Numbered from the stretch's first letter, positions 7,219-52,998 are shown. The stretch: 64,000 bases of DNA from Rubripirellula sp. (GCA_965216875.1 OZ244207.1:2528001-2592000), one strand, 5' to 3'. A program made the numbers and translations. Notes: generated by a model from the sequence alone, not told the origin.

Positions 7219-8529
7219 ATGGCTGTCCCACATTGGTCCATAGAAGTCCTCCGCCGCGGCATCAGCGACGCAGCTCGGAAGGCCAGCGACCCTCAGACCC
7301 TTGCAAAGCTGAAGACCCAAGCCACCGAGTTGTTGCAAGAGATCCCTGACACAGCGGCACGCGGGATCGACACAGTGATGCGCAGCGCCGAGTCGGGCAA
7401 GAACGCTGTCCAGCGCTGGTCGCGAAAACACACCACGCTTGCCGTTCCCGCTTTGAACGCGAGCGGTGTCCTACTGGGCGAGGGAGGCATGGGTCTTCCC
7501 GTGGCTGATCAGATCGTCGAGATTGGGTGCGAGTTTTTGCATGGAGACGTGCTGGTCAACCAAGACATCGACGATCGAATCGCCAAACGCCTTGCCAAAC
7601 GCATTCCCGGTGGCGACCAAGTCGACATCGCGATCGCATCAAGTTTTCCTGCGGCCCTGTCGGCCTTTTCGTCGCTCGTCGAGTCGACTCCCTTGGTCAT
7701 TCATCGAAATCATGCCGTGCGTTTGCCAAATGGGTTGCCGCTGCCTGAGGCCTTTGGAACGTACTTGCCAGTGATTCAGGAAGTGGGTGCCGTCGGTCAT
7801 GTCGCTGCGACCGACTTTGATGGGCTTGATGAGTTCTGCGCTGTCCTCGCCGATGGTGGCTCGCGCGAAGTCGAACTACTCGAGCTTCCGGACCGCGAGT
7901 TCCTGCAGGCGGTCGTGCTGCCAGTGGGAACGGTCTCACAATCCTGCGTCGACGCGATTCCCTCAGCCGAAGCATTGATCTCGAAGGGAGCCGATTTTGT
8001 GATCCTGCCTGGTCGCGGAATCCTTGGTGGGCCAGATTGTGGCTTGGTGGTCGGTTCCAAAGAAGGCATCGCTCAGATCAAGTCGGCCGCCACTTGGCCG
8101 TCCCTTTCGGCAAGCGCTGCAACCACGGCGATGATGACCGTCGCACTCGAACTCGCGGGCGACTCAAGCACCAATCCTTGCCTTGGACTGATTGCGGCCA
8201 GCGAAGAGAACCTTCGTAGTCGCGCCGAACGAATGGCAACGCGTTTGACCGGCAGCGATTCGATTGCCAGCTGCCAGGTGACCGCCGATGATGCGCGCAT
8301 CACTCCGGATGGTCGCTGGCGGTTCCCGTCACGCCAACTACGAATTCGCCACGCCAACCAATCGGCGTCAGATTGGACCGAGAAACTGCAGGCAGACTAC
8401 CCCGCAGTCATGGCGGTTACCGATGGCGACGATCTGAAAATCGACCTCCGCTGGATCGCTGCCGCCGATGATGGCCGGTTGGCAACCGCGCTCGGATCAC
8501 CAAAGGCCGAGCCCGAATCGGACGCATAG
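7219..8529 (+). CDS. SelA-like (selenocysteine synthase fold) protein lacking the PLP-binding lysine
   Basis: Colinear degenerate SelA motifs LNASGVLL, IQEVG, GADFV.LPGRGILGGP.CGLVVG and C-terminal IDLRWI; extra helical N-terminal ~70 aa. Confidence 0.7.
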   Translation: MAVPHWSIEVLRRGISDAARKASDPQTLAKLKTQATELLQEIPDTAARGIDTVMRSAESGKNAVQRWSRKHTTLAVPALNASGVLLGEGGMGLPVADQIVEIGCEFLHGDVLVNQDIDDRIAKRLAKRIPGGDQVDIAIASSFPAALSAFSSLVESTPLVIHRNHAVRLPNGLPLPEAFGTYLPVIQEVGAVGHVAATDFDGLDEFCAVLADGGSREVELLELPDREFLQAVVLPVGTVSQSCVDAIPSAEALISKGADFVILPGRGILGGPDCGLVVGSKEGIAQIKSAATWPSLSASAATTAMMTVALELAGDSSTNPCLGLIAASEENLRSRAERMATRLTGSDSIASCQVTADDARITPDGRWRFPSRQLRIRHANQSASDWTEKLQADYPAVMAVTDGDDLKIDLRWIAAADDGRLATALGSPKAEPESDA

Positions 8530-8532
8530 GAT

Positions 8533-8627
8533 GTAGGGTGTGTGCTTGCACGCACCACTGCTCGATTACTGCCTGGTCGCATAGGAACCGCATGGAAAGT
8601 GTCGGTGCGTGCAAGCACACACCCTAC
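8533..8627. repeat. REPIN: perfect 24-bp inverted GTAG-type REP pair
   Basis: GTAGGGTGTGTGCTTGCACGCACC (8533-8556) and GGTGCGTGCAAGCACACACCCTAC (8604-8627); same family at 36832-36881. Confidence 0.9.
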
Positions 8628-8743
8628 GCCTACGCCGATTCTGGTAAACCTTGACGGTTGGGCTAATTATTCGGGCGTGAACCGACGATGCAAAACGATG
8701 TGCGTTACACCCATGTTGTTTCACGTCATTCTTCAGTCGAACC

Positions 8744-9697
8744 ATGCCCAGAAAAGAACCACAGGATGTGCGTCGCTACGTCGACATGTGGGCCTTGCCC
8801 GGGATCCATCCCAGCAACGTTGAATTGCTTCAAAAGCTGAAGACGGCCGACACCAACCACTTCACGACCCACATGGACACGGTCGGCACCGTCTCGACCC
8901 AGGACCAGGATTCGGGCAAGTGGGAAAAGACGCACCTGATTGGCGTCCGCACCGATATTTGGAAGCCCGATGCCGAAGAGATGGCCGATGCGCTTGACGC
9001 GATGCAGCACAAGCGACGCAAAGAGCTCAAACAAACGATCAAGAAGACCGGCAAGCTGAATCGCAAGCAGGAGAAACTGCTCGAAAACCAGCTCGAGGAC
9101 GACGACATCATGAAGATGCAGTCAGGCGAGATCGAGAAACGCCGCCTGGTGCTCAAACTCTTCAAAACGACTGGAACCCGTGTGCGTTGGTGCGGCACGA
9201 TCGAGCAAGTCACCACGACCGAAGTCCACAATTCGATCGGTTCCAAACGAAGTCTCTTGACGATGGTCGTGATGCTGCCTGGCAGCGACTTCGTGACCTA
9301 TATCCAACAGAATCATCGGACCTTTCGCATCCCGTCGGTCTTTACCTTTGGGTACTACGACGACGGACGCATGCACCATTTGATGCTAAAGCGTCGCTGG
9401 GTCTCGATCGGTGCCGATTTCGACGTCGAATGCGATGGGGAGAACATCGGCGAACTCGACGGACGCCTTTTTTCGTTCGGCTCTGACAGCTACATCGACC
9501 TCGACGCCCATCCGCTGACGGCCGACACGCAATTCGTCGATCTCGTGACGCTCTTTACCGCCACCTCGGGGTACCACCGAGCGATGCGACGCAGCGTCAA
9601 ACGCCGCGTCGAAGCGGCTCTTTCTGGGCAATCACATCGCCACATCATCGAAGACGAAGAATTGCGTCTCCGGCATAACGGCCGCGCCGCAGCCTAG
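8744..9697 (+). CDS. Conserved hypothetical protein, C-terminal region resembling LURP-one/scramblase (tubby-like) domain
   Basis: 317-aa ORF with native-looking codon usage; C-terminal RRWVSIGADFDV...IGELDGRLFSFGSDSYIDL pattern. Confidence 0.6.
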   Translation: MPRKEPQDVRRYVDMWALPGIHPSNVELLQKLKTADTNHFTTHMDTVGTVSTQDQDSGKWEKTHLIGVRTDIWKPDAEEMADALDAMQHKRRKELKQTIKKTGKLNRKQEKLLENQLEDDDIMKMQSGEIEKRRLVLKLFKTTGTRVRWCGTIEQVTTTEVHNSIGSKRSLLTMVVMLPGSDFVTYIQQNHRTFRIPSVFTFGYYDDGRMHHLMLKRRWVSIGADFDVECDGENIGELDGRLFSFGSDSYIDLDAHPLTADTQFVDLVTLFTATSGYHRAMRRSVKRRVEAALSGQSHRHIIEDEELRLRHNGRAAA

Positions 9698-42657: not shown

Positions 42658-43410
42658 CTAGCTCGCGCCGTTGAAAATCATGATGCACGAAACGAGCACC
42701 AGCGACGCGGCGACGATACGTTTGAATCGTTGGCCCTTGATGTAGCGGCTCGCCCACGCGCCAAGTTGAACGCCCACGATCGCAAACGGAGCGGCGAGGA
42801 GTGATTGTGTCACCATTTCGCCAGTCACAAGCTCGTCATCCAGAAACATCACGACCGCCTTGTAACAGGCGATGACGAGCAAACATTGAGTCACGAATGC
42901 TTTGAACTGAGCCTGAGACCAATCTTGTTTGAGAGCGAAAGCGGCAACCGGTGGTCCAGCGATGCTGACGGCGCCGGCAAGAAAACCACTCGCTGCTCCG
43001 GCAGCAAAACAAGACAACTTCGAAGTCGATTCCTGTTTCGCGTCCGCCGTCTTGCGAAGACTCAACAAAACCATGGCCAAGATCGCGACGCCCGTTCCAC
43101 GCACCAAGAGGTCGAGTGGAGCGTGCAAAAAGGCCCACAGACCGGGTGGCAGGAAGAGCAGCGCACCCAACATCGACAACCGTAGCGATGGCCACTGGAT
43201 GCCTTCGCGGTACGCCCATGCAGCCATGATCAACATCGGAACACTCGAAAGACTGATCACGACATGCGCCGCCTTGATGTCCAACAGGAAAGGCATCACC
43301 GAGAGAGCAACGATACCAAACCCGAAGCCGATGGCGCTGTGCACGAAGCCAGCGGCAAACGCAACGACGGCGATTCCAGCGAGTGTGGTGAGGGTTTCGC
43401 CGTCAAGCAC
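42658..43410 (-). CDS. TauE/SafE (TSUP) sulfite exporter-family membrane protein
   Basis: About eight TMs; AGFVHSAIGFGFG and SGFLAGA.SI.GPP repeats; start overlaps the MFS stop by 1 nt. Confidence 0.88.
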   Translation of the reverse strand: MLDGETLTTLAGIAVVAFAAGFVHSAIGFGFGIVALSVMPFLLDIKAAHVVISLSSVPMLIMAAWAYREGIQWPSLRLSMLGALLFLPPGLWAFLHAPLDLLVRGTGVAILAMVLLSLRKTADAKQESTSKLSCFAAGAASGFLAGAVSIAGPPVAAFALKQDWSQAQFKAFVTQCLLVIACYKAVVMFLDDELVTGEMVTQSLLAAPFAIVGVQLGAWASRYIKGQRFKRIVAASLVLVSCIMIFNGAS

Positions 43411-44801
43411 TACTCAGGCAGCTCCGCGCCACGCGTTTCTTTCGCAAACAGGACGACGATCACACCGAGCAGGAAGAGCCAGCTCAGCAGCGACGCCGCT
43501 TCTTCGAGCGAGTAGCCAAGCCCGCCATCTGCTTCAGGCCGCTGCATCCAACCGGTCAACAGCAACATCGGAAACGTGACCAATCGGCCCATATTGAAAC
43601 AGAAACCAGCGCCCGTTCCTCGCAAACGCGTGGGATACAACTCGGGAAAGTAAACGGCGTACCCAGCATGCATCCCCAGTGTCAGGAAACCAAAGATCGG
43701 CAGCGTGATCCAAATCAAAGCGAGCGACGCCCCGCCGCCAACGATGTACTTGAAAAAAACGAGGGCAACAATCAACGCTCCCAGGTGATAGAAGACGAAG
43801 GCGCCTTTTCTTCCCAACCGATTCGAAATCCATCCGAACAGCAGCAGCCCAATCCCGCCGCCGGTCGTGTTGACGAACATACTCAGCATCTCGGCCCGTT
43901 TAATGTCGCCCGCTTTCTCCTTGAACACCACTTCCTTTTCTTCGTCTGTCGCATCAACCCCGAGCCCCGCTTCGGCCAAGACTTCGGCCCGTTTCTTCGA
44001 CATCAACGCGTTCTTGCCGTAGATGTGCGCGCCCCAAAACGTGGCCAAACCGATCGTCGCAAGCGAAACACCCACGAGCGTGTTGCGGAGATTCTGTGAG
44101 TTGAAGAGCTCGATGATGCTGCCCGTCTTCTCCTGCGGATTCTCCGCCGCCCGTTCCTTCGCTTTGACCCATTGCTCGGGTTCATGAAGTTTCCAGCGAA
44201 TCCAAACAGTAAGCAGCGCCGGGACAACACCGATCAAGAAACCGAGCCGCCACGTGTTTTCGCCCCACGGGCTCGCTGCAATCACAAAGAAACCGACCAA
44301 CGTTGCCAGGTAAGTCCCAAACACACTTGATGCGTGAAAGATGGATCCCATCACCGCGCGAGACCGTTGCGGCATCACCTCGGCAACCATCGCCGACGCG
44401 ACCGCCCATTCACCGCCAACGCCCATGGCGACAAAGAATCGAAGCACAACCATGTGCCACGCTTCGCCCGCAAACGCGGTGACGCAAGTGAACAACGAGT
44501 AAAACAAGATCGTGATGATCATTGTCTTGGAGCGCCCAATCCGGTCACTTAGCATGCCAAAAAAGACACCACCAATGGCACCGCCCAGCAAGAACGATCC
44601 GAGTGCGACGTTATTCCAAAAACGAACGATTCCATCCTCGGCATCGCCGAGCAATTGCGGCATCGCATCACGCATGGACGCGACAAAGATCTGGCCTTCG
44701 AAAACATCAAAGACCCAGCCGAGCGATGCGATCAGAAGCACCAGCCATTGGTACTTGCTGATCCCTTCATTCCATTTCAGAGGTTGCGAATCGTTGCTCA
44801 C
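43410..44801 (-). CDS. MFS transporter
   Basis: GWVFD, G.LSDRIGR, LRFFVAMGVGGEW, PELYPT.LR.TG.G; about 12 TMs. Confidence 0.93.
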   Translation of the reverse strand: MSNDSQPLKWNEGISKYQWLVLLIASLGWVFDVFEGQIFVASMRDAMPQLLGDAEDGIVRFWNNVALGSFLLGGAIGGVFFGMLSDRIGRSKTMIITILFYSLFTCVTAFAGEAWHMVVLRFFVAMGVGGEWAVASAMVAEVMPQRSRAVMGSIFHASSVFGTYLATLVGFFVIAASPWGENTWRLGFLIGVVPALLTVWIRWKLHEPEQWVKAKERAAENPQEKTGSIIELFNSQNLRNTLVGVSLATIGLATFWGAHIYGKNALMSKKRAEVLAEAGLGVDATDEEKEVVFKEKAGDIKRAEMLSMFVNTTGGGIGLLLFGWISNRLGRKGAFVFYHLGALIVALVFFKYIVGGGASLALIWITLPIFGFLTLGMHAGYAVYFPELYPTRLRGTGAGFCFNMGRLVTFPMLLLTGWMQRPEADGGLGYSLEEAASLLSWLFLLGVIVVLFAKETRGAELPE

Positions 44802-44877
44802 GGGACAAGTTTTGCCAGGTAGGAGTGGGTGGTTGGGAGGGCGTCGCTCGCGGCAGCGAACTGAGACAGGTTAACCG

Positions 44878-45903
44878 CTACGGCGACGGCGTGAAGGATT
44901 GCATCTGCATTTCTGCCAGAGAAGCGACCACCTTCCGCTGGCCGCTGAACGGGCGCCGCGCATGCATCGCAATGGTGTTGTCGACGATTGCAACGTCTCC
45001 AGGTTGCCACTGCAAATCAAACGCAATCTCCTCGGCAAGCGTCACAGCAACGCCCACCGCATCGGCATCGAGAGGCGAACCGTCGCCGTGGCAAATCGAC
45101 TTTGAGGGATCATTTCGCGAGTCTTTCCAACCACAAAACGCGGCAATGAGCTGGTTGAAAAAGACTTTGCGTCCCGGCTGAACTTCGACCACAGCGGGCA
45201 AGGGCGGGGTGGTCGCACGCAAACATCCATCCTCTTGCCACTGCCACGTGTATCCAAGTTCGCCCAAGCGTGCCTCGGCTTCTTCTCTGGTCGTCACACC
45301 GAGCGTGCTTTTCCAGCTGCGCCCCATCCCCGATTTTGCATCATCGCTATCGGGCATCACGTTGCTGTAGCAGAGACCAAGTCGCTCACACTTTGCAGCA
45401 AATTCAGGATTCGCTTCGACGAGTTTCTCGAACAGAACGTCGGAACGACAAAGCGGCGTCGCACCACCGGTCTCGGGCGCGACTTCACACGAGAACATGA
45501 TCCACTTCGGGAACAGGGGCGTTTGAGCCATCTCGTGATGAAAGAAAATTTGAACGTTCGCCGGAGCCTCGTTCGCTGAAAAAACGCGTTCCGTCCGATT
45601 CACGCGAACCGCATTGGACAGCGACTTCTTGTAAGGAAAATTTGCCAGCTGCAGAGCCTGGATGATCCGATCGAACCCCTCAGCGCCATCAACCGGAAAG
45701 TCACGCAACAAAATCGCCCCATGCTCGGTCGCATGTGCCAATAGAAGCTCGCGTTTCGCTTCCACCCAGCCTGCAGCGTCGTCAATCGAGATTGAATCAT
45801 CGCGGTTGACCATCACGTACGGAAAGACGCTGCCGCCGTATCGCTGCTGGCCATCAACCGCAACCGTCTCGATCGCCAATGAATCTATGTCGCTAGTGGT
45901 CAT
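44878..45903 (-). CDS. Fe(II)/2-oxoglutarate dioxygenase, TauD/CAS superfamily (SyrP/At3g21360-like)
   Basis: HGAILLR.F, VFSANEAP...IFFHHEMAQ (HxE), GGATP, FFNQ, WQ.GD..IVDN...MHAR.PF.G.R. Confidence 0.9.
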   Translation of the reverse strand: MTTSDIDSLAIETVAVDGQQRYGGSVFPYVMVNRDDSISIDDAAGWVEAKRELLLAHATEHGAILLRDFPVDGAEGFDRIIQALQLANFPYKKSLSNAVRVNRTERVFSANEAPANVQIFFHHEMAQTPLFPKWIMFSCEVAPETGGATPLCRSDVLFEKLVEANPEFAAKCERLGLCYSNVMPDSDDAKSGMGRSWKSTLGVTTREEAEARLGELGYTWQWQEDGCLRATTPPLPAVVEVQPGRKVFFNQLIAAFCGWKDSRNDPSKSICHGDGSPLDADAVGVAVTLAEEIAFDLQWQPGDVAIVDNTIAMHARRPFSGQRKVVASLAEMQMQSFTPSP

Positions 45904-45913
45904 GCCGAGCCGC

Positions 45914-46891
45914 CTACTCGTAAATGGGAAAGAAAGTGTTGAACGCCGCTTCGCAAAAGTCACCGGGATCGTTGAAACGACGATTTCGATTGAGCGCCGA
46001 GATCGATTGCATCTGTTGATCGGTCAATGCAAAGTCAAAGATGGCAAGGTTCTCTTTGAGTCGTTCAGTGCTTGTCGTCTTAGGAACAATGGAAGTCCCA
46101 CGCTGAACGCCCCAACGCAAAAGGACCTGAGCCGCAGTTCGACCGTGGGCCGACGCGATTTCGTTGATCACCGGATGCTGCATCAACGACTCGTTCTGCT
46201 GAGCCATGTTCAATTGAAAGTAGGATTGCGCTCCTAGCGGCGAAAACGCCGTCACCGCGATCGAAGACTCGCGACAAAACCGAACCAGCTTTTCCTGAGT
46301 CAGATAAGGATGCATCTCGACTTGCAACACGGACGGAGCAATGTCCGCCTGATTAATCAGATCTCGCAACAGCGAACACCCAAAGTTGCAAACTCCGATT
46401 TCCTTTACCAAGCCGGCGCGAACCAACTCTTCCATCGCTTGCCATGTCTCGATGATCGGAACACGATCGGGAACCATCACCGGATTGTCCGCATCCGGGT
46501 CGGTAAACCAGCCCGGCGGGTAGCGTTGTTCGAAAGGAACGAACTGCGATGCAATCGGAAAATGCATCAGGTAAAGATCAAGGTAATCGAGCTGGAGATC
46601 GGCCAGCGTCTTTTCGAGTGCAGGACGCACATGCTCGGCACGATGGTAGGTGTTCCAAAGTTTCGAAGTGATCCATAAATCATCTCGGGACACTTTGCCC
46701 GAATGGATTGCGGCCGAGAGCCCGGCGCCCGCTTCGGTTTCGTTGCCATAATCACAGGCGCTGTCGAAATGGCGATACCCACAATCGATGGCGTCTTGAA
46801 CGACCTGGGTCACTTTTTCGTTTTCGATCTTCCAAAGGCCAAGGCCAACCGAAGGAAGCTGGCGACCACTGGAGAGTGTGAGAGAATCCAT
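45914..46891 (-). CDS. Aldo-keto reductase (xylose/aldose reductase-like)
   Basis: GLGLWK, D.A.DYGNE, TSKLWN, LYLMHFP, IGVCNF, QVEMHPYL.Q, PK.., RFNDP. Start ATG 46891. Confidence 0.93.
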   Translation of the reverse strand: MDSLTLSSGRQLPSVGLGLWKIENEKVTQVVQDAIDCGYRHFDSACDYGNETEAGAGLSAAIHSGKVSRDDLWITSKLWNTYHRAEHVRPALEKTLADLQLDYLDLYLMHFPIASQFVPFEQRYPPGWFTDPDADNPVMVPDRVPIIETWQAMEELVRAGLVKEIGVCNFGCSLLRDLINQADIAPSVLQVEMHPYLTQEKLVRFCRESSIAVTAFSPLGAQSYFQLNMAQQNESLMQHPVINEIASAHGRTAAQVLLRWGVQRGTSIVPKTTSTERLKENLAIFDFALTDQQMQSISALNRNRRFNDPGDFCEAAFNTFFPIYE

Positions 46892-46970
46892 TGTCTCGTC
46901 TTGCTGAGGGGTGGGTGGAAGGTGTAGCTGTGGTGGGATTTTAGCGGACCGGATTCTAGCGAACTCGACC

Positions 46971-48113
46971 CTAGCGTTCAGGCGTCTCGGGTTGCCATGA
47001 CTGGACGGCGCCGCCGGCGGCACCAAGGGCCCCGACGTCCTCTTGCAGGGTCGACGCGACAACCTCGGCAGGCTGTCCAAGGTGTTCGGGCGAAAGTGAT
47101 TGAAAGGTGCTTCGCAGTGGTTCAAGGAACTGAGTTTCAAGCGTTGCCAGGGGCCCAGCAACGATCACGCGTTTTGGACGCAACAACATCGACGCCTGTG
47201 CCACAACGCTGCCAACCGCCGCGGACGCTTCGCGAAGCAATCGACAAACGAGAGCATCCGACTGTTGCGCAGCCAGTAACAACTGCCGAGTGCTCACCGT
47301 CCCGTGACGCACTTTGGCGATCGATTCCTTTCCATTGGAAATCGCATCCGCGACTCGGTCGCAGATCGCTCGTGTCGAAGCGGCCTCCTCAAGCGTCGAC
47401 TTTCGCACCGGCCAACAACCGATTTCGCCCGCCGTGTTTCCCGTTCCCCGGTAGAGCTTGCCGCCAACAAAGACGCCCGAGCCGATGCCGCTGCGGATGC
47501 CCAAACAAAGAAAATCTTCAACGTCACGGCCTTGGCCAAACCAGCGTTCGGCCAGCGCGATCGCGCGGATGTTGTTTTCCAAAAACACAGGAACACCAAA
47601 CCGCTCGCTTACCGAATCGACCACCGGTACATCATCCCAGTCGCGAATGAAACGGTAGTTTCGCGCGGTACCGCCTGCCAAATCAATGACGCCCGGGACG
47701 GCAACGCCGATCCCGAGTAAAGGTCGCGAGCGGCGGCGGACGGCAGCGATCAGGCTGCGAATATGACCGAGCACGTCCGCCGACGTCGCGTTCTTTCGGA
47801 GCGTTTGGCTTGCGCTATGGAGCGGTTGCTGTGCAAAATCGACTGAAATCGCGCGGACCTGCTCGGCGTCCAAATCCACGCCAATGAACTGGCCAGCCTC
47901 GGGATTGAGTTCCAACAGCGTTCGCGGCCTTCCCGATCCAGCCTTCGCTTGCGCCCCCTCTCGCAAATACCCGCCACGCACCAATCGATCGACGTGAATG
48001 CCGATCGTCGATGGTGCAATCTGCAAACGCCTGGCAAGGTCGACGCGCGAAATGCCATCGCACAATCGAATCTGATGGATCACTGATGATTCAACAGCCA
48101 GCTTCACGTTCAC
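46971..48113 (-). CDS. ROK family transcriptional regulator
   Basis: HTH ISRVDLARRL..APSTI, GSGRP, GIGVAVPG, ENNIRA.ALAE, GIGSG, AGEIG; the Cys-rich zinc motif is missing. Start approximate. Confidence 0.9.
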   Translation of the reverse strand: MNVKLAVESSVIHQIRLCDGISRVDLARRLQIAPSTIGIHVDRLVRGGYLREGAQAKAGSGRPRTLLELNPEAGQFIGVDLDAEQVRAISVDFAQQPLHSASQTLRKNATSADVLGHIRSLIAAVRRRSRPLLGIGVAVPGVIDLAGGTARNYRFIRDWDDVPVVDSVSERFGVPVFLENNIRAIALAERWFGQGRDVEDFLCLGIRSGIGSGVFVGGKLYRGTGNTAGEIGCWPVRKSTLEEAASTRAICDRVADAISNGKESIAKVRHGTVSTRQLLLAAQQSDALVCRLLREASAAVGSVVAQASMLLRPKRVIVAGPLATLETQFLEPLRSTFQSLSPEHLGQPAEVVASTLQEDVGALGAAGGAVQSWQPETPER

Positions 48114-48146
48114 CAAGCCGCTTGAGGGAGAAACTCGTTGCCCACT

Positions 48147-48175
48147 ATCTTTATTTCGATTTCGAAATATGTCAA
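48147..48175 (-). promoter_or_regulatory. Sigma70-like promoter with a palindromic ROK-type operator in the spacer
   Basis: Minus-strand TTGACA at 48170-48175; palindrome TATTTCGA-TT-TCGAAATA at 48152-48169; weak -10 AAAGAT at 17-bp spacing. Confidence 0.65.
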
Positions 48176-48240
48176 GATGGCGAGACGTTTTTTGTGGTCT
48201 CGTGTAGGCTTTGCCGTTTTGCACAATGAGGGTCAAAGGG

Positions 48241-49287
48241 ATGAGCGACGCGCCATTGCGATTTGGTTTGGTTGGTTTCGGTGCTTGGGGCGGCCATCAC
48301 GCCAACGCGATCACGGTCACGGAAGGAGCCGAGTTGGTTGCGATCTCGGCCCAGAGCGAATCGTCACGAACCCGCGCGCAGGAAACCTATCCCGACGCGG
48401 ACGTCTATGCCGACTTTCGTGAATTGGTCGCACGCGAGGACTTGGATTTTGTGGATGTGGTGGTGCCAAGTCATCTGCATCACGAAGTTGCGATGGCGGT
48501 CTTGGCCAGCGGCAAAAACCTGATGCTCGAAAAACCGATGGGCGTCACTCTTGGGGAGTGTGACGACATGATCCGGTTGGCACGAGAAAAGAACGCCTTG
48601 TTCGCGGTGGGCCACGAGCTTCGACTTTCGTCGATGTGGGGCAAGGCCAAAGCAATGATTGACGAAGGCTTTATCGGCACACCCCTTTATGCTCTCGTCG
48701 AGCTTTCGCGGAATCCCTATCGGCAGGGCGCTGACGGGTGGCGTTACGACATCGACCGTGTCGGCAGCTGGATCTTGGAAGAACCGATTCACTTCTTCGA
48801 TTTGGCACGCTGGTATTTGTCAGCCTCAGGCGATCCGACCTCGATTTACGCGACCGCGAACTCACGGCAGCCAGATCACCCGGAATTGCACGATAACTTC
48901 AGCGCGATCATGCATTTCGAAAAAGGAGCTTACGCCGTCGTTTCGCAAACGCTGGCCGCCTTCGAACACCACCAAACGATCAAGGTGACTGGAACGACCG
49001 GTGCTCTTTGGGCATCGTGGAGCGGTGCGATGGACCGCACGCGACATCCCACCTTTTCACTGCGCGCCTTTGACGGCGACCAAGTCACCACTGTCCCGAT
49101 CGACAAGCCCACCGGCGAATTGTTCGAGCTGGAGGACCAGATCGCTCAGCTGGTTGCCGCGGTGCGTCGCGGCGAACCCCTTCACTGCAGCGGCGAAGAC
49201 GGTCGCTGGTCGGTTGCCATGTGCCTGGCAGCCGAAGATTCAGTCAGGTCGGGTGCAACGGTCGCGATGAGCGAGTATCTTGCTTAG
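48241..49287 (+). CDS. Gfo/Idh/MocA family oxidoreductase
   Basis: GLVGFGAWG, LEKP, VGHELR, ILEEPIHFFD. Confidence 0.92.
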   Translation: MSDAPLRFGLVGFGAWGGHHANAITVTEGAELVAISAQSESSRTRAQETYPDADVYADFRELVAREDLDFVDVVVPSHLHHEVAMAVLASGKNLMLEKPMGVTLGECDDMIRLAREKNALFAVGHELRLSSMWGKAKAMIDEGFIGTPLYALVELSRNPYRQGADGWRYDIDRVGSWILEEPIHFFDLARWYLSASGDPTSIYATANSRQPDHPELHDNFSAIMHFEKGAYAVVSQTLAAFEHHQTIKVTGTTGALWASWSGAMDRTRHPTFSLRAFDGDQVTTVPIDKPTGELFELEDQIAQLVAAVRRGEPLHCSGEDGRWSVAMCLAAEDSVRSGATVAMSEYLA

Positions 49288-49464: not shown

Positions 49465-50385
49465 ATGAGACCGTTCCTCGCCCTCCTGATCCTGTTCGGT
49501 GTTTCCGCAAACCTCGTTGCAGAGCCGATCGCCAAAAAGAAACTCATCCTCGTCGCTGGCAAACCGTCTCACCCGCCGCGAATGCATGAATTCAACGCGG
49601 GCGTCCAATTACTTACCAAGTGCCTCGCCGAAAACGAGGCGGTCGAGACCACCTTCGTTTTGAATGGTTGGCCAAAGGACGAAGCGATTTTCAATGATGC
49701 CGATGCGGTCGTCTTTTTCATGGACGGAGGCAAGCGACATGAAGTGGTCCAAGAGGACGGTCGACGTCTCAAACTGCTCGACCAATGGGCGAAAAAGGGC
49801 GTTGGCTTGGGTTTCATGCACTATGGCGTCGAAGTGTTGGCCGATCAAGCTGGCTCTGAAATGAAACGCTGGATCGGCGGTCACTACGAGCACATGCACT
49901 CCTGCAATCCGATTTGGGAACCGAACTTCGCGGTGCTGCCAGACCATGAAATCACTCGGGGCGTCAAACCCTTCCAAATCAAAGACGAGTGGTACTTCAA
50001 CATGCGGTTTATTGGCGACTCGGCGGGCAACCAAGTGGACAACTTTGACAACGACATGAAGTTCGTTCCGATCCTGTTGGCAGTTCCTTCCCAGAAAGTT
50101 CGCAACGGCCCGTACGTGTACCCGAAAGGTCCCTACGCACACATTCAGGCATCCAAAGGTCGCGCCGAGGCGGTGATGTGGACGGTCGAACGTGCCGATG
50201 GCGGTCGCGGACTCGGTTTCACTGGCGGACATTTCCACGACAACTGGGGCAACGATGACTATCGCAAAGTGGTCCTCAACGGTCTGGTCTGGTTGACCGG
50301 CGCCAACGTTCCCGATGGCGGCGTCGCATCGAACGTCGATCAAGCGGATCTCGACGCCAACCTCGACAAAAAGAACCGTCGCTAG
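49465..50385 (+). CDS. Secreted ThuA-like (class I glutamine amidotransferase-fold) protein
   Basis: Signal peptide; AGKPSH...HE, MHY, DEWYF, GGRG.GFTGGH.H.NW. Confidence 0.85.
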   Translation: MRPFLALLILFGVSANLVAEPIAKKKLILVAGKPSHPPRMHEFNAGVQLLTKCLAENEAVETTFVLNGWPKDEAIFNDADAVVFFMDGGKRHEVVQEDGRRLKLLDQWAKKGVGLGFMHYGVEVLADQAGSEMKRWIGGHYEHMHSCNPIWEPNFAVLPDHEITRGVKPFQIKDEWYFNMRFIGDSAGNQVDNFDNDMKFVPILLAVPSQKVRNGPYVYPKGPYAHIQASKGRAEAVMWTVERADGGRGLGFTGGHFHDNWGNDDYRKVVLNGLVWLTGANVPDGGVASNVDQADLDANLDKKNRR

Positions 50386-50961: not shown

Positions 50962-52998
50962 CTAAGGCGTCACCAACAGCACAGGCTTTCCGGGAACGCG
51001 GGCGTTGCCAAACAAGGCGATCGGCCTGAGGCGGATCGGGCCATCGCCATATTTCTTGCGATCCACCTTCAGCGTTCCGCGATTGCCCTCGAGCGTGCCC
51101 ACGATTTCATCATGATGTGCAAGGAGAATCTTGTCTGCATCAGCCATGACCGAAAGCGAAACTTCTGATTCACCCGAAGCGACCGTTGCAATGGGAATTC
51201 GCTCGGTCTCGCCGATGGTGACCAGCTGAGCGAACGAAACGCGAGGCTCAGTCGAATCGAATCCAACCAACGAAGTACGAATCGCAAGCTCGCCGCTGAA
51301 GGCCAACTGTTCGCCCTCTTTTTGGCGGAAGTTGATCTCCACGCGTTTCGTCGCTGCGGAACGATGCACAAGTTTGCCTTCGATAAAGGTTTCAACAAAC
51401 CTTAGGTCCGATGTTTCTCGTTCTGGCTTTTGCCCCTCTATCAGATCCGTTCGAAACTTACCCGCCTCGACGTCCAATTCCGTTCGTGCGCGAAGGCTTG
51501 GCGCACGCGCAAAGGGTTGGGCAAGTGGGTCACCGACCATCAGCAATTGGTATGGCGACGTGATGGAGAGGTAATACGCCTCGATCGCTGTCGCACCCGA
51601 TGCGTAAAAGCCGTACATGATCGGCATCGGAAACTTTGGCTGCAGCGAATAGGGCTCTTCAACCGGTCCCGAAGCCATCGCCGCCCCCGCGTGCAAGAGG
51701 TCCGTTAACTTGGCTTGACTGCTGGTTCCAAAATGGCCGTTAAGGCTGGTCAAGTTGTCGGCGATCGCTCCAGGAACAAACGACCAATCCCTCGGCTCGA
51801 GCCTTGGATTGGCGCTACCGAGCATGAGCCCAACGCAACGACCGGTCCGATTGGGGACATCGGCGTGGATCAGTTCAGCCTTTTGTTCGAGATCGGCGAG
51901 CCAGAGCAGCGCATCACCCACCAACGGGAACCTTGTCGTTGTTCGAACGTCATTGGTGCGAGTGAACCAAAAGTGCGCGTCGGGAAACGTGCGATCGCCT
52001 CGTTTGGCACGGGCCAACACGTCCACCGCTTGATCCACGGTGCTTCCCCGCTCATGAACGACAGCGAGCATGCATGAGAGCATGTAGGGGACGCCTTCGC
52101 CGATTCCCTCGATTGCGTACCCATTGCCAGTCCAACCACGTGTGGCCGAAAACCCAACGGGCAGCTGCGCGATCATTGGCGCATCGGTAAGCCCGCGTAG
52201 AAGCACGCCGTACTCGGGGTTCGACTTCAGTTCCGAAAGCGACTCGGTTTCGGCCAAGTAGGTCGCTGATGACCAACCAGCTCGAACCCCCGCCTTGATC
52301 CACTCCATGGCTCGATCAGCATCCGCCCGTTTCATTTCGGCTTCCGCAGCCTTGATCGCCAGCGGTGCGAGCGGGTATTTCTTGAACAGTGTTTCAAACC
52401 CGTTGAGAGCGTCGGAAGGCTCGTCCTTTGCCAGCGCGTCGAGCGCGTCTTGATAGAGCGTGCGATTGTCACCCTGAAACGGATTGCTGAAATCGCGTTC
52501 GAATTTCCCTCTCGCATAGAGGTTCGAAATCCAATCAAGGTACTGGGCATTGTCGGCCAGAACGAAGCGATACAGGTAAGTTAGCCCGTTGATTGATGCG
52601 ACGGGCCTTTGATACTTGATCTGATTTGGGTCCGTCAGCTGTTTGGTGTGCTCAGAAACATCGACCGAGGTCGGGAAGTCGGCCGAATACGCGATCACTC
52701 GCGCATGACGCCCCAGTCCCCGCGAATTGATCGCTGCAAAAACGGGCTTCAGGATCTTCTCTTTGAAATCACTCAGCCCAATGCGGAGCTCACCTGTCGC
52801 AATGTCATCCAGCACCACCACGTTGGTCGAGGGGATTTGCCGGATTTCGACATAGTGGTTGGCAACCGTTCGGGAGATGTGTGAATCGCCATTGACGACA
52901 ACAATCACGTTTTCGCCACTGAGTCCAGCACATGCCGCGGTCGGCACCATGCTCGCGACCAGGCAAGCGGCAATCCATCGGCAAAGGGCTGTGATCAT
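50962..52998 (-). CDS. Secreted TIGR03790-like protein with TPR-like insertion
   Basis: Signal peptide; V.VVVN..S..S..VA.HY...R.IP..N; FVPGAIADNLTS; GP.EEPY...KFP; VGDPL..PFA. Confidence 0.72.
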   Translation of the reverse strand: MITALCRWIAACLVASMVPTAACAGLSGENVIVVVNGDSHISRTVANHYVEIRQIPSTNVVVLDDIATGELRIGLSDFKEKILKPVFAAINSRGLGRHARVIAYSADFPTSVDVSEHTKQLTDPNQIKYQRPVASINGLTYLYRFVLADNAQYLDWISNLYARGKFERDFSNPFQGDNRTLYQDALDALAKDEPSDALNGFETLFKKYPLAPLAIKAAEAEMKRADADRAMEWIKAGVRAGWSSATYLAETESLSELKSNPEYGVLLRGLTDAPMIAQLPVGFSATRGWTGNGYAIEGIGEGVPYMLSCMLAVVHERGSTVDQAVDVLARAKRGDRTFPDAHFWFTRTNDVRTTTRFPLVGDALLWLADLEQKAELIHADVPNRTGRCVGLMLGSANPRLEPRDWSFVPGAIADNLTSLNGHFGTSSQAKLTDLLHAGAAMASGPVEEPYSLQPKFPMPIMYGFYASGATAIEAYYLSITSPYQLLMVGDPLAQPFARAPSLRARTELDVEAGKFRTDLIEGQKPERETSDLRFVETFIEGKLVHRSAATKRVEINFRQKEGEQLAFSGELAIRTSLVGFDSTEPRVSFAQLVTIGETERIPIATVASGESEVSLSVMADADKILLAHHDEIVGTLEGNRGTLKVDRKKYGDGPIRLRPIALFGNARVPGKPVLLVTP

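Follow-up and report, generated by a model that had tools for sequence, protein, structure and literature searches.

A conserved planctomycete gene cluster with a SqoD-family dioxygenase: a probable version of the sulfo-SDO pathway for sulfoquinovose

Background

Sulfoquinovose (SQ) is an abundant sulfosugar of algal and plant membranes, and its production has been put at about 10 billion tonnes a year (Ye 2023 PMC10507154, Kaur 2023 PMC10755693). The question raised here is whether a gene cluster of Rubripirellula sp., located at positions 42658-49287 of a 64,000-nucleotide stretch of genomic DNA (GCA_965216875.1 OZ244207.1:2528001-2592000, referred to as the window), specifies the removal of sulfonate from this sugar. 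The cluster contains genes for a ROK regulator, an aldo-keto reductase (AKR), an Fe(II)/2-oxoglutarate dioxygenase, an MFS transporter and a TauE-family membrane protein, along with a divergently transcribed gene for an oxidoreductase of the Gfo/Idh/MocA family, termed Gfo below. Judged by its sequence, the dioxygenase falls into the SqoD family of SQ dioxygenases, and the gene order is far beyond chance, since it recurs in dozens of related loci. The cluster is probably a planctomycete version of the sulfo-SDO pathway, which strips the sulfonate group from SQ.

Results and discussion

The dioxygenase belongs to the SqoD family

The best match of the dioxygenase in the PDB was 9YUT (E 2.2e-74), followed by the Arabidopsis protein At3g21360 (1y0z, E 1.8e-70), whereas the TauD-type sulfonate and sulfate enzymes TauD and AtsK were matched only with E-values above 0.04 (AtsK, 0.046). 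The comparison with SqoD, TauD and AtsK that the first-pass annotation had suggested thus assigns the protein to the SqoD family. The entries 9YUT-9YUX represent the SQ dioxygenase MaSqoD of Marinobacterium aestuarii (Lee 2026 PMC12951627), in which H115/E117/H308 form the iron triad, Gln120 and Trp253 contact SQ, and residues 84-93 form a gating loop. In the 9YUW complex, Gln120 touches the sulfonate, Trp253 touches the C1/C2 hydroxyls, and the main-chain amides at Ala89/Ala90 face the sulfonate (PMC12951627). According to the alignment with 9YUT, Q127 and W259 of the window protein correspond to Gln120 and Trp253, and neither these two residues nor H122/E124/H314 vary among the 19 relatives that were aligned. 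The structure model of the dioxygenase (predicted local distance difference test, pLDDT, 91.6) resembled At3g21360 with a TM score of 0.89 and 37% identity in a Foldseek search; the PDB copy searched (up to April 2026) is without 9YU* entries, so that MaSqoD could not appear.

A second characterized member of the family is AmSqoD of Alteromonas macleodii, which releases sulfite from SQ, shows a 58-fold rise on SQ, carries the triad H121/E123/H313 and is only 34% identical to MaSqoD (Nat Commun 2025 PMC12780224). The window dioxygenase shares 53% identity over 324 aa, without gaps, with the A. macleodii protein P0402, which carries the published triad numbering of AmSqoD and shows about 14 N-terminal differences, counted by eye, from the printed AmSqoD sequence. 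Moreover, the active-site loop motif SLSNAVR is common to the window protein and AmSqoD (ESLSNAVRIN). The corresponding segment reads PYKKSLSNAV in the window protein and PYIGGAAPRS in MaSqoD, with the GGAAPR type occurring in At3g21360 as well.

A family tree was calculated by a quick IQ-TREE run with SH-aLRT support. From the 150 listed 50%-cluster representatives, the 83 with a length of 295-420 aa were taken and combined with 19 locus sequences and four named proteins; the removal of five rows for low coverage left 101 rows. The family splits in two (SH-aLRT 99), with the window dioxygenase in a 35-row SLSNAVR clade (SH-aLRT 98) that includes the AmSqoD type, and with the MaSqoD representative P0440 (E 7e-132 to 9YUT) in the opposite half. 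Since the AmSqoD type and MaSqoD lie on opposite sides, SQ dioxygenase activity is documented in both halves of the family. This distribution bears on the possibility that the cluster plays no role in sulfur metabolism at all, with the dioxygenase hydroxylating a neutral sugar or another metabolite, AKR and Gfo interconverting sugars, and TauE serving as a general anion carrier. The family does include plant and bacterial members of unknown function and a clearly different clade that lacks the SQ-contacting Trp, but both of its biochemically tested members, one on each side of the tree, are SQ dioxygenases.

The divergent clade just mentioned (P0451, P0454, P0455, P0466, P0475 and P0481; SH-aLRT 100) is a sister clade with an SLS(Y/F/L)AVR loop, HHEQA in place of HHEMAQ and no Trp at the SQ-contact position, and it likely acts on a different substrate. 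At3g21360 keeps the HHEMAQ and GW motifs of the window protein, from which it differs by its loop type, its position on the MaSqoD side and the lack of a gene-cluster context; it may be a plant SQ dioxygenase. Two dioxygenase genes of related loci, one in L052 (about 7806-8795) with an internal stop in the reading frame and one in G300:C45:27363-28334 with one TAG in frame, may be pseudogenes or may reflect sequencing errors.

Organization and conservation of the cluster

The source genome consists of one 8.26-Mb contig that is 99% complete, and it contains a single copy of the dioxygenase gene. The features of the locus are as follows, with positions counted from the first letter of the window:

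42658..43410, minus strand: TauE/SafE-family membrane protein, 250 aa (PF01925, E 2.4e-28), last gene of the operon
43410..44801, minus strand: MFS transporter, 463 aa (PF00083/PF07690)
44878..45903, minus strand: SqoD-family Fe(II)/2-oxoglutarate dioxygenase, 341 aa from ATG (PF02668, E 1e-26)
45914..46891/46900, minus strand: AKR, about 325-328 aa (PF00248, E 4.6e-53)
46971..~48113, minus strand: ROK regulator with an N-terminal winged helix-turn-helix (PF00480, E 1.5e-37, and HTH_24/MarR_2)
48152..48169, no strand: palindrome TATTTCGA-tt-TCGAAATA, a predicted operator for ROK between divergent promoters
48241..49287, plus strand: NAD(P)-dependent oxidoreductase of the Gfo/Idh/MocA family, 348 aa from ATG (PF01408, PF22725, PF02894)
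49465..50385, plus strand: ThuA-like protein, 306 aa (PF06283, E 2.3e-12), possible accessory, not core

The open reading frames, protein families and gaps of the five co-oriented genes and of the divergent Gfo gene across the palindrome agree with the initial description of the locus. The TauE and MFS genes overlap by 1 nt, 76 nt separate the MFS and dioxygenase genes and 10 nt the dioxygenase and AKR genes, and the gap between the AKR and ROK genes measures 79 nt, provided that the AKR gene starts at 46891. The start codons of the ROK, AKR and Gfo genes are uncertain by a few codons; the longest open reading frames extend to 45963 for the dioxygenase and to 48236 for ROK and begin at 48211 for Gfo. 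All NCBIfam matches of the cluster proteins were below the curated cut-offs, and hence the six proteins include no named equivalog.

The cluster was compared with 61 related loci, and the counts given below cover only those loci whose contig reaches far enough (53 or 41). An AKR gene is located directly upstream of the dioxygenase gene in 41 of 53 loci, an MFS gene downstream in 37 of 53, and a TauE gene downstream in 26 of 53, the last count referring to loci with at least 3 kb downstream of the dioxygenase. Within 6.5 kb upstream, a Gfo gene of the window type is present in 31 of 41 loci and is replaced by a GH188 gene in four of 41; a ROK gene is found upstream in eight of 41. The neighbourhood is accordingly conserved, and a lack of co-conservation of TauE, which the first-pass annotation had named as a refutation, is not observed: TauE is conserved in Pirellulaceae-type loci, although many others lack it. 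Among 301 genomes sampled evenly across the phylum, in which related genomes do not count as independent, the dioxygenase was detected at E <= 1e-60 in 12 genomes, concentrated in two families, and a Gfo orthologue at E <= 1e-80 in ten; both occurred together in seven.

The four loci with a GH188-type Gfo/Idh/MocA gene (L054, L055, L056 and L060) carry it upstream, beside the dioxygenase and/or AKR gene. The order in L055, L056 and L060 is GH188, the same type of AKR, and dioxygenase, whereas in L054 the GH188 gene lies beside the dioxygenase gene and no AKR gene is present. The loci L054, L055 and L056 derive from metagenome-assembled genomes (MAGs) of Gammaproteobacteria and L060 from a MAG labelled Myxococcales, the dioxygenase of L060 being nested within a 12-row Planctomycete clade (SH-aLRT 99). 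The L055 protein matched the NAD+-dependent sulfoquinovosidases ArSqgA and FlSqgA with an E-value of about 1e-94 (ArSqgA, 2e-95), and the GH188 proteins of the other three loci are 62-96% identical to it. This neighbourhood suggests a tie between the dioxygenase clade and SQ.

Additional observations concern the surroundings of these loci. The gene next after the GH188-AKR-dioxygenase operon of L055/L056 (11167-12474) belongs to the sodium:dicarboxylate symporter family (PF00375), and its product might transport 2-oxoglutarate/succinate or the sulfosugar. The locus L019 is filed under a Nitrosopumilus MAG, and its Gfo (76%), AKR (71%), dioxygenase (64%) and MFS (60% identical to the window protein) represent a Planctomycete-type cluster that is probably there by a binning error. 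In the window, the ThuA-like protein has an N-terminus that resembles a signal peptide, as judged by eye, and a gene for a TIGR03790-family protein is located just past it (50962-52998, minus strand); a 46%-identical homologue of this protein directly follows the dioxygenase in L020 (11068-13047). No other sulfosugar genes were found elsewhere in the 64-kb window, which otherwise encodes kinases, Sec proteins, two-component systems and a 2-oxoacid:ferredoxin oxidoreductase.

Predicted pathway of SQ desulfonation

Drawing on the observed family membership, residue conservation, synteny and clade position, every chemical step of the following pathway is a prediction. SQ or an SQ glycoside would be imported by the MFS transporter, and the dioxygenase would use O2 and 2-oxoglutarate to hydroxylate C6, whereupon sulfite would leave and 6-dehydroglucose would be formed. 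The xylose-reductase-like AKR would convert 6-dehydroglucose into glucose with NADPH, and TauE would export the sulfite. The ROK repressor would control both divergent transcription units by binding to the palindrome at 48152-48169. As a preferred guess, Gfo would work at the glycoside end of the pathway and stand in for GH31 or GH188, either by oxidising an SQ glycoside at C3 or by reducing a 3-keto-SQ product. The scheme of import, oxidative desulfonation, aldehyde reduction and sulfite export put forward in the first-pass annotation is thus supported at the sequence level by the SqoD-family dioxygenase, the co-conservation of AKR, the occurrence of TauE and the GH188-linked relatives.

With respect to the reductase, the best PDB match of the AKR was the Candida tenuis xylose reductase 1jez (E 1.9e-94), fungal xylose reductases led the list, and the alignment shows the motifs of the Asp/Tyr/Lys/His tetrad. 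For the AKR from L055, a GH188-linked locus, fungal xylose reductases were likewise the closest PDB matches. SmoB, the AKR that acts as 6-oxo-glucose reductase in Agrobacterium and whose structure was solved from model 4R9O (Sharma 2022 PMC8795539), was not among the 60 best PDB matches of the window AKR (7BBY, 7BBZ, 7BC0 and 7BC1 were looked for; all 60 with E <= 8e-70). An orthology to SmoB is hence unsupported, and the parallel originally drawn with the AKR of the Agrobacterium Smo pathway does not seem to extend to the protein type. It is plausible that the AKR serves as an NADPH-dependent 6-dehydroglucose reductase from a different AKR branch than SmoB.

The MFS protein gave its best NCBIfam match with the aromatic acid/H+ symport model TIGR00895 (157 bits, cut-off 418) and reached only 69 bits with the sugar-porter model; it is predicted to import an anionic sulfosugar. 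The TauE protein, one of three TauE paralogues in the genome, passes the PF01925 cut-off (99.9 bits, cut-off 32.6) and is predicted to export sulfite. The SorA-type sulfite oxidase domain PF00174 is absent from the genome, which fits sulfite export.

Several points weigh against a pathway for SQ. The SQ-contacting Gln and Trp are kept in At3g21360 too, so that they are necessary but not discriminating and leave SQ specificity unproven, the window protein differs from MaSqoD in the sulfonate-binding loop, and the identity to MaSqoD is only about 40% in a hand count on the alignment. The AKR does not appear to be of the SmoB/SquF type. Half of the usable loci have no TauE gene and 12 of 53 no AKR gene, and the Gfo orthologue (E <= 1e-80) is missing in five of the 12 dioxygenase-bearing genomes of the phylum sample. 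TauE-family proteins transport various anions. The genome encodes neither GH31 nor a true GH188, and free SQ is a minor natural species, which leaves the entry step unexplained.

Some of these points favour the same chemistry on another substrate, namely an SQ glycoside such as sulfoquinovosyl glycerol, another 6-sulfonated sugar or, as for AtsK, a sugar 6-O-sulfate, with the AKR again reducing the aldehyde. Apart from the lack of a sulfoquinovosidase and a loop unlike the one in MaSqoD, which alone among SqoDs has been solved in complex with SQ, this explanation can invoke AtsK, a TauD-family enzyme that cleaves sulfate esters (title of PDB 1oij), and the sulfatase genes near the dioxygenase gene in L010, L034, L047, L052, L049 and L060. 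Sulfatases are abundant in these genomes, so that finding them nearby in a few loci counts for little, and the similarity to AtsK is negligible. AmSqoD, with the same SLSNAVR loop, acts on free SQ, and the GH188 enzymes that adjoin relatives of the dioxygenase release free SQ. A different substrate is therefore considered unlikely, although with a real share of the probability. A cluster without any sulfur role would be in line with the neutral sugars that ROK regulators usually sense and with the sub-threshold NCBIfam matches, but it would leave aside the four loci in which GH188 sulfoquinovosidases are linked to the dioxygenase directly in an operon, the co-conservation of TauE and an MFS transporter that is nearer to organic-anion symporters than to sugar porters; it is regarded as very improbable. 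Desulfonation of SQ remains the probable function of the cluster.

The Gfo enzyme and the missing sulfoquinovosidase

Gfo is the most conserved component of the set, with orthologues that are 59-85% identical in the 31 loci counted above. In G190, which harbours the closest family member, the gene is part of the operon itself, in the order ROK, dioxygenase, Gfo, MFS and TauE, without AKR. Gfo accordingly counts among the core parts of the system, highly conserved and not accessory, and the view of this protein as an extra dehydrogenase has to be abandoned.

The absence of GH31 that had been noted for the window extends to the complete 8.26-Mb genome, in which PF01055 had no match, with controls matched in six of 14 cases. 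A true GH188 was not found in the genome either: among 22 Gfo paralogue matches the best was the cluster Gfo itself (26% identity, E 3e-23). GH31 and true GH188 were likewise absent from five dioxygenase-bearing Planctomycete genomes (G190, G207, G156, G285 and G043). The cluster Gfo is the most GH188-like paralogue in G190 and G207 also, but not in G156, and no GH188-like match at E <= 1e-20 was obtained in G285 and G043. Compared with GH188 (ArSqgA numbering, in which Arg166 and Lys172 bind the sulfonate), all 15 aligned Gfo orthologues have Leu for Tyr136 and Gly for Lys172 and have lost the segment with His321, whereas the equivalents of Lys107, Arg166, Glu189 and His193 are kept. As the catalytic Tyr136 and His321 are missing, Gfo was ruled out as a GH188 sulfoquinovosidase.

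The best sequence and fold matches of Gfo are 1,5-anhydro-D-fructose reductases (E 7e-24, TM score 0.84). In the fold search, GH188, 1,5-anhydrofructose reductase, RgNanOx, DgpA and inositol dehydrogenases all gave E-values of 1e-24 to 1e-26 and TM scores of 0.73-0.87, and these near-equal scores mean that the fold search cannot separate GH188 from other Gfo families. Quite conceivably, Gfo does not process glycosides but simply acts on the sugar product as an NAD(P)H-dependent reductase or dehydrogenase, for instance reducing 6-dehydroglucose where no AKR is present or oxidising glucose at C1. The closest matches and the loss of Tyr136 and His321 are in keeping with such a role, as are G190 with its AKR-less operon and six loci (L035, L038, L039, L042, L061 and L064) in which tblastn matched Gfo and no AKR over the stretch covered. 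Most loci, however, contain both AKR and Gfo, which are thus not simple substitutes. Gfo also takes the position that GH188 occupies in L055, L056 and L060, and it is the most GH188-like paralogue in its own genome as in G190 and G207.

The genes around Gfo in the related loci speak against a plain reductase as well, since some loci flank Gfo with a 3-keto-disaccharide hydrolase or with a second Gfo that has a Tat signal. A DUF1080 3-keto-disaccharide hydrolase occurs in six of 41 loci, a second Gfo in eight of 41 and xylose-isomerase-like TIM barrels in 15 of 41, and a ThuA-like orthologue adjoins Gfo in five loci (L008, L009, L012, L013 and L033). In some of the loci L004, L012, L013, L015, L041, L043 and L058, the DUF1080 hydrolase gene lies between the Gfo and AKR genes; the L013 hydrolase has a signal-peptide-like N-terminus (one example, by eye). 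A second Gfo with PF19051 was observed in ten loci, and the one at L038:7264-8604 starts with the twin-arginine-like TRRDVL (by eye). By analogy, the DUF1080 and Tat-like Gfo neighbours may be parts of a periplasmic 3-keto-glycoside route.

The same families are found in 3-keto-glycoside routes of Bacteroides thetaiotaomicron (BT2156-BT2160) and rhizobia (ThuAB), namely Gfo dehydrogenases (one with a Tat-like signal), a DUF1080 hydrolase, xylose-isomerase-like TIM barrels and ThuA (available text of Liu 2021 PMC8121099). Unlike in these routes, such neighbours are present only in a minority of the loci compared here, and in the window only ThuA is adjacent. The Gfo, DUF1080, TIM-barrel and ThuA families are very numerous in Planctomycetes, so that chance adjacency is possible. 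As a guess from this analogy, a function of Gfo at the glycoside entry step is favoured, a plain reductase role being about as likely. In its full form the proposal would make Gfo the key of a third, hitherto undescribed route for opening SQ glycosides, with split 3-keto and cleavage steps and with DUF1080, TIM-barrel and ThuA proteins as helpers, which would replace GH31 and GH188 in Planctomycetes; this is put forward tentatively and is rather doubtful.

The ROK regulator and its predicted operator

The ROK protein is NagC/Mlc-like, and the orthologues in the eight loci with an upstream ROK gene are 45-58% identical to it; further orthologues occur in L063/L064. The 18-nt palindrome TATTTCGA-tt-TCGAAATA has 8-nt arms with 100% complementarity and is the sole copy in the 64-kb window at up to three mismatches; at least one match was obtained in 29 of 100 shuffles, and the single copy is therefore not significant. 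The same palindrome is present upstream of the ROK genes in L010, L038, L039 and L042, and a central variant in L012, although the ROK proteins of these five loci are only 45-54% identical to the window protein. It is this recurrence in five distant ROK loci that makes the palindrome credible; it was not found in L024, L035, L044 and L061. The palindromic site between the divergent units, which was part of the initial description, is consequently retained as a predicted ROK operator. Its 10-nt core was discarded as a signal, being no commoner than in shuffled sequence; it gave 45 matches at two mismatches against a shuffle mean of 34.7, and three of 100 shuffles reached 45. A promoter scan yielded no sigma-70-like promoter, and the terminator-like matches all fall within genes and were disregarded.

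Comparison with known pathways

The deduced composition of the cluster was compared with the SQ pathways described in the available text of the respective publications. The combination of SqoD and a reductase, with or without an exporter, is already published as sulfo-ASDO/sulfo-SDO (Ye 2023, Lee 2026, Nat Commun 2025), and the claim of a new pathway in the first-pass annotation cannot be upheld. A close counterpart is the SQ-induced sulfo-SDO cluster of A. macleodii ATCC 27126 (MASE_17990-18035, PMC12780224), which contains a dioxygenase of the same subfamily with the SLSNAVR loop and the HHEMAQ motif and which shows the same core order of regulator, 'SquF' oxidoreductase, SqoD and exporter. 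It differs by a GntR regulator instead of ROK, by a YeiH 'sulfate exporter' and a two-subunit sulfite dehydrogenase instead of TauE without a PF00174 enzyme, and by a TonB receptor and the GH31 sulfoquinovosidase SqgH instead of an MFS importer without GH31; a Gfo/Idh/MocA gene, present in the window cluster, is not reported in the available text (PMC12780224).

The sulfo-ASDO systems of Marinobacterium aestuarii and Marinomonas ushuaiensis (PMC10507154, PMC12951627) likewise employ an Fe/2-oxoglutarate dioxygenase with a His-Glu-His triad and the SQ-contacting Gln and Trp, and an NADPH reductase gene adjoins the dioxygenase gene as the AKR gene does here. In contrast to the window cluster, their dioxygenase has the GGAAPR loop (PMC12951627) and falls into the opposite half of the tree calculated here, their reductase SquF is 52% identical to SmoB (PMC10507154), the window AKR being xylose-reductase-like, and a TRAP transporter, GntR and GH188 stand in place of MFS, ROK, TauE and a non-GH188 Gfo (PMC10507154, PMC12951627). 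The sulfo-SMO pathway of Agrobacterium tumefaciens (SmoA-I, PMC8795539) follows the same logic, with oxygenolytic C-S cleavage to 6-oxo-glucose and its conversion into glucose by an AKR-superfamily enzyme, but it uses the flavin monooxygenase SmoC and a flavin reductase instead of an Fe/2-oxoglutarate dioxygenase, together with an ABC importer and the GH31 enzyme SmoI. The GH188 enzyme SqgA (Kaur 2023 PMC10755693) shares the Gfo/Idh/MocA fold with Gfo (TM score 0.85 to 8qc5/8qc6, codes confirmed in that paper) and occupies in related loci the same place beside AKR and dioxygenase; the identity is only 24-27%, and Gfo lies outside GH188.

Conclusions

The key chemistry of the cluster appears to be that of sulfo-SDO, and the new elements would be the phylum, the transporter, the exporter, the regulator, the AKR branch and the conserved dehydrogenase. 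The sulfo-SDO route has been listed for Oceanospirillaceae, Alteromonas, Dinoroseobacter and Marinomonas (2026 FEMS review), and accounts of it have so far come only from marine Proteobacteria. No account of the pathway in Planctomycetes was found in the literature joining sulfoquinovose and Planctomycet* by title or abstract; the FEMS review, with 0 occurrences of Verrucomicrob*, is not among the literature containing both sulfoquinovose and Planctomycet*. The names Planctomycete, Pirellula and Verrucomicrobia are also absent from five supplementary files of the Nat Commun 2025 study (PMC12780224). The 2023 survey found the pathway only in Oceanospirillaceae because it started from SmoB-like reductases, and the 2025 ocean survey applied a 60% identity cut-off to AmSqoD; with either approach, clusters like the present one would be missed.

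A sequencing run labelled 'algae metagenome' (X5) contained contigs that cover all 30 bins of the cluster at 42658-49287, with 14 of 1714 and 61 of 4624 letters differing from the window (about 99% identity), which indicates that a near-identical strain lives with algae, the makers of sulfoquinovosyl lipids. If the predicted pathway is correct, complete mineralisation of SQ to glucose and sulfite would be within the reach of Pirellula-like Planctomycetes, and the cluster would add MFS as a new type of SQ importer, TauE as an exporter and ROK as a regulator whose operator is defined. How glycosides are accessed in genomes without a known sulfoquinovosidase is a question that can be addressed directly through the conserved Gfo, and should a third glycoside-opening route exist, algae-associated Planctomycetes would be overlooked consumers of sulfolipid head groups.

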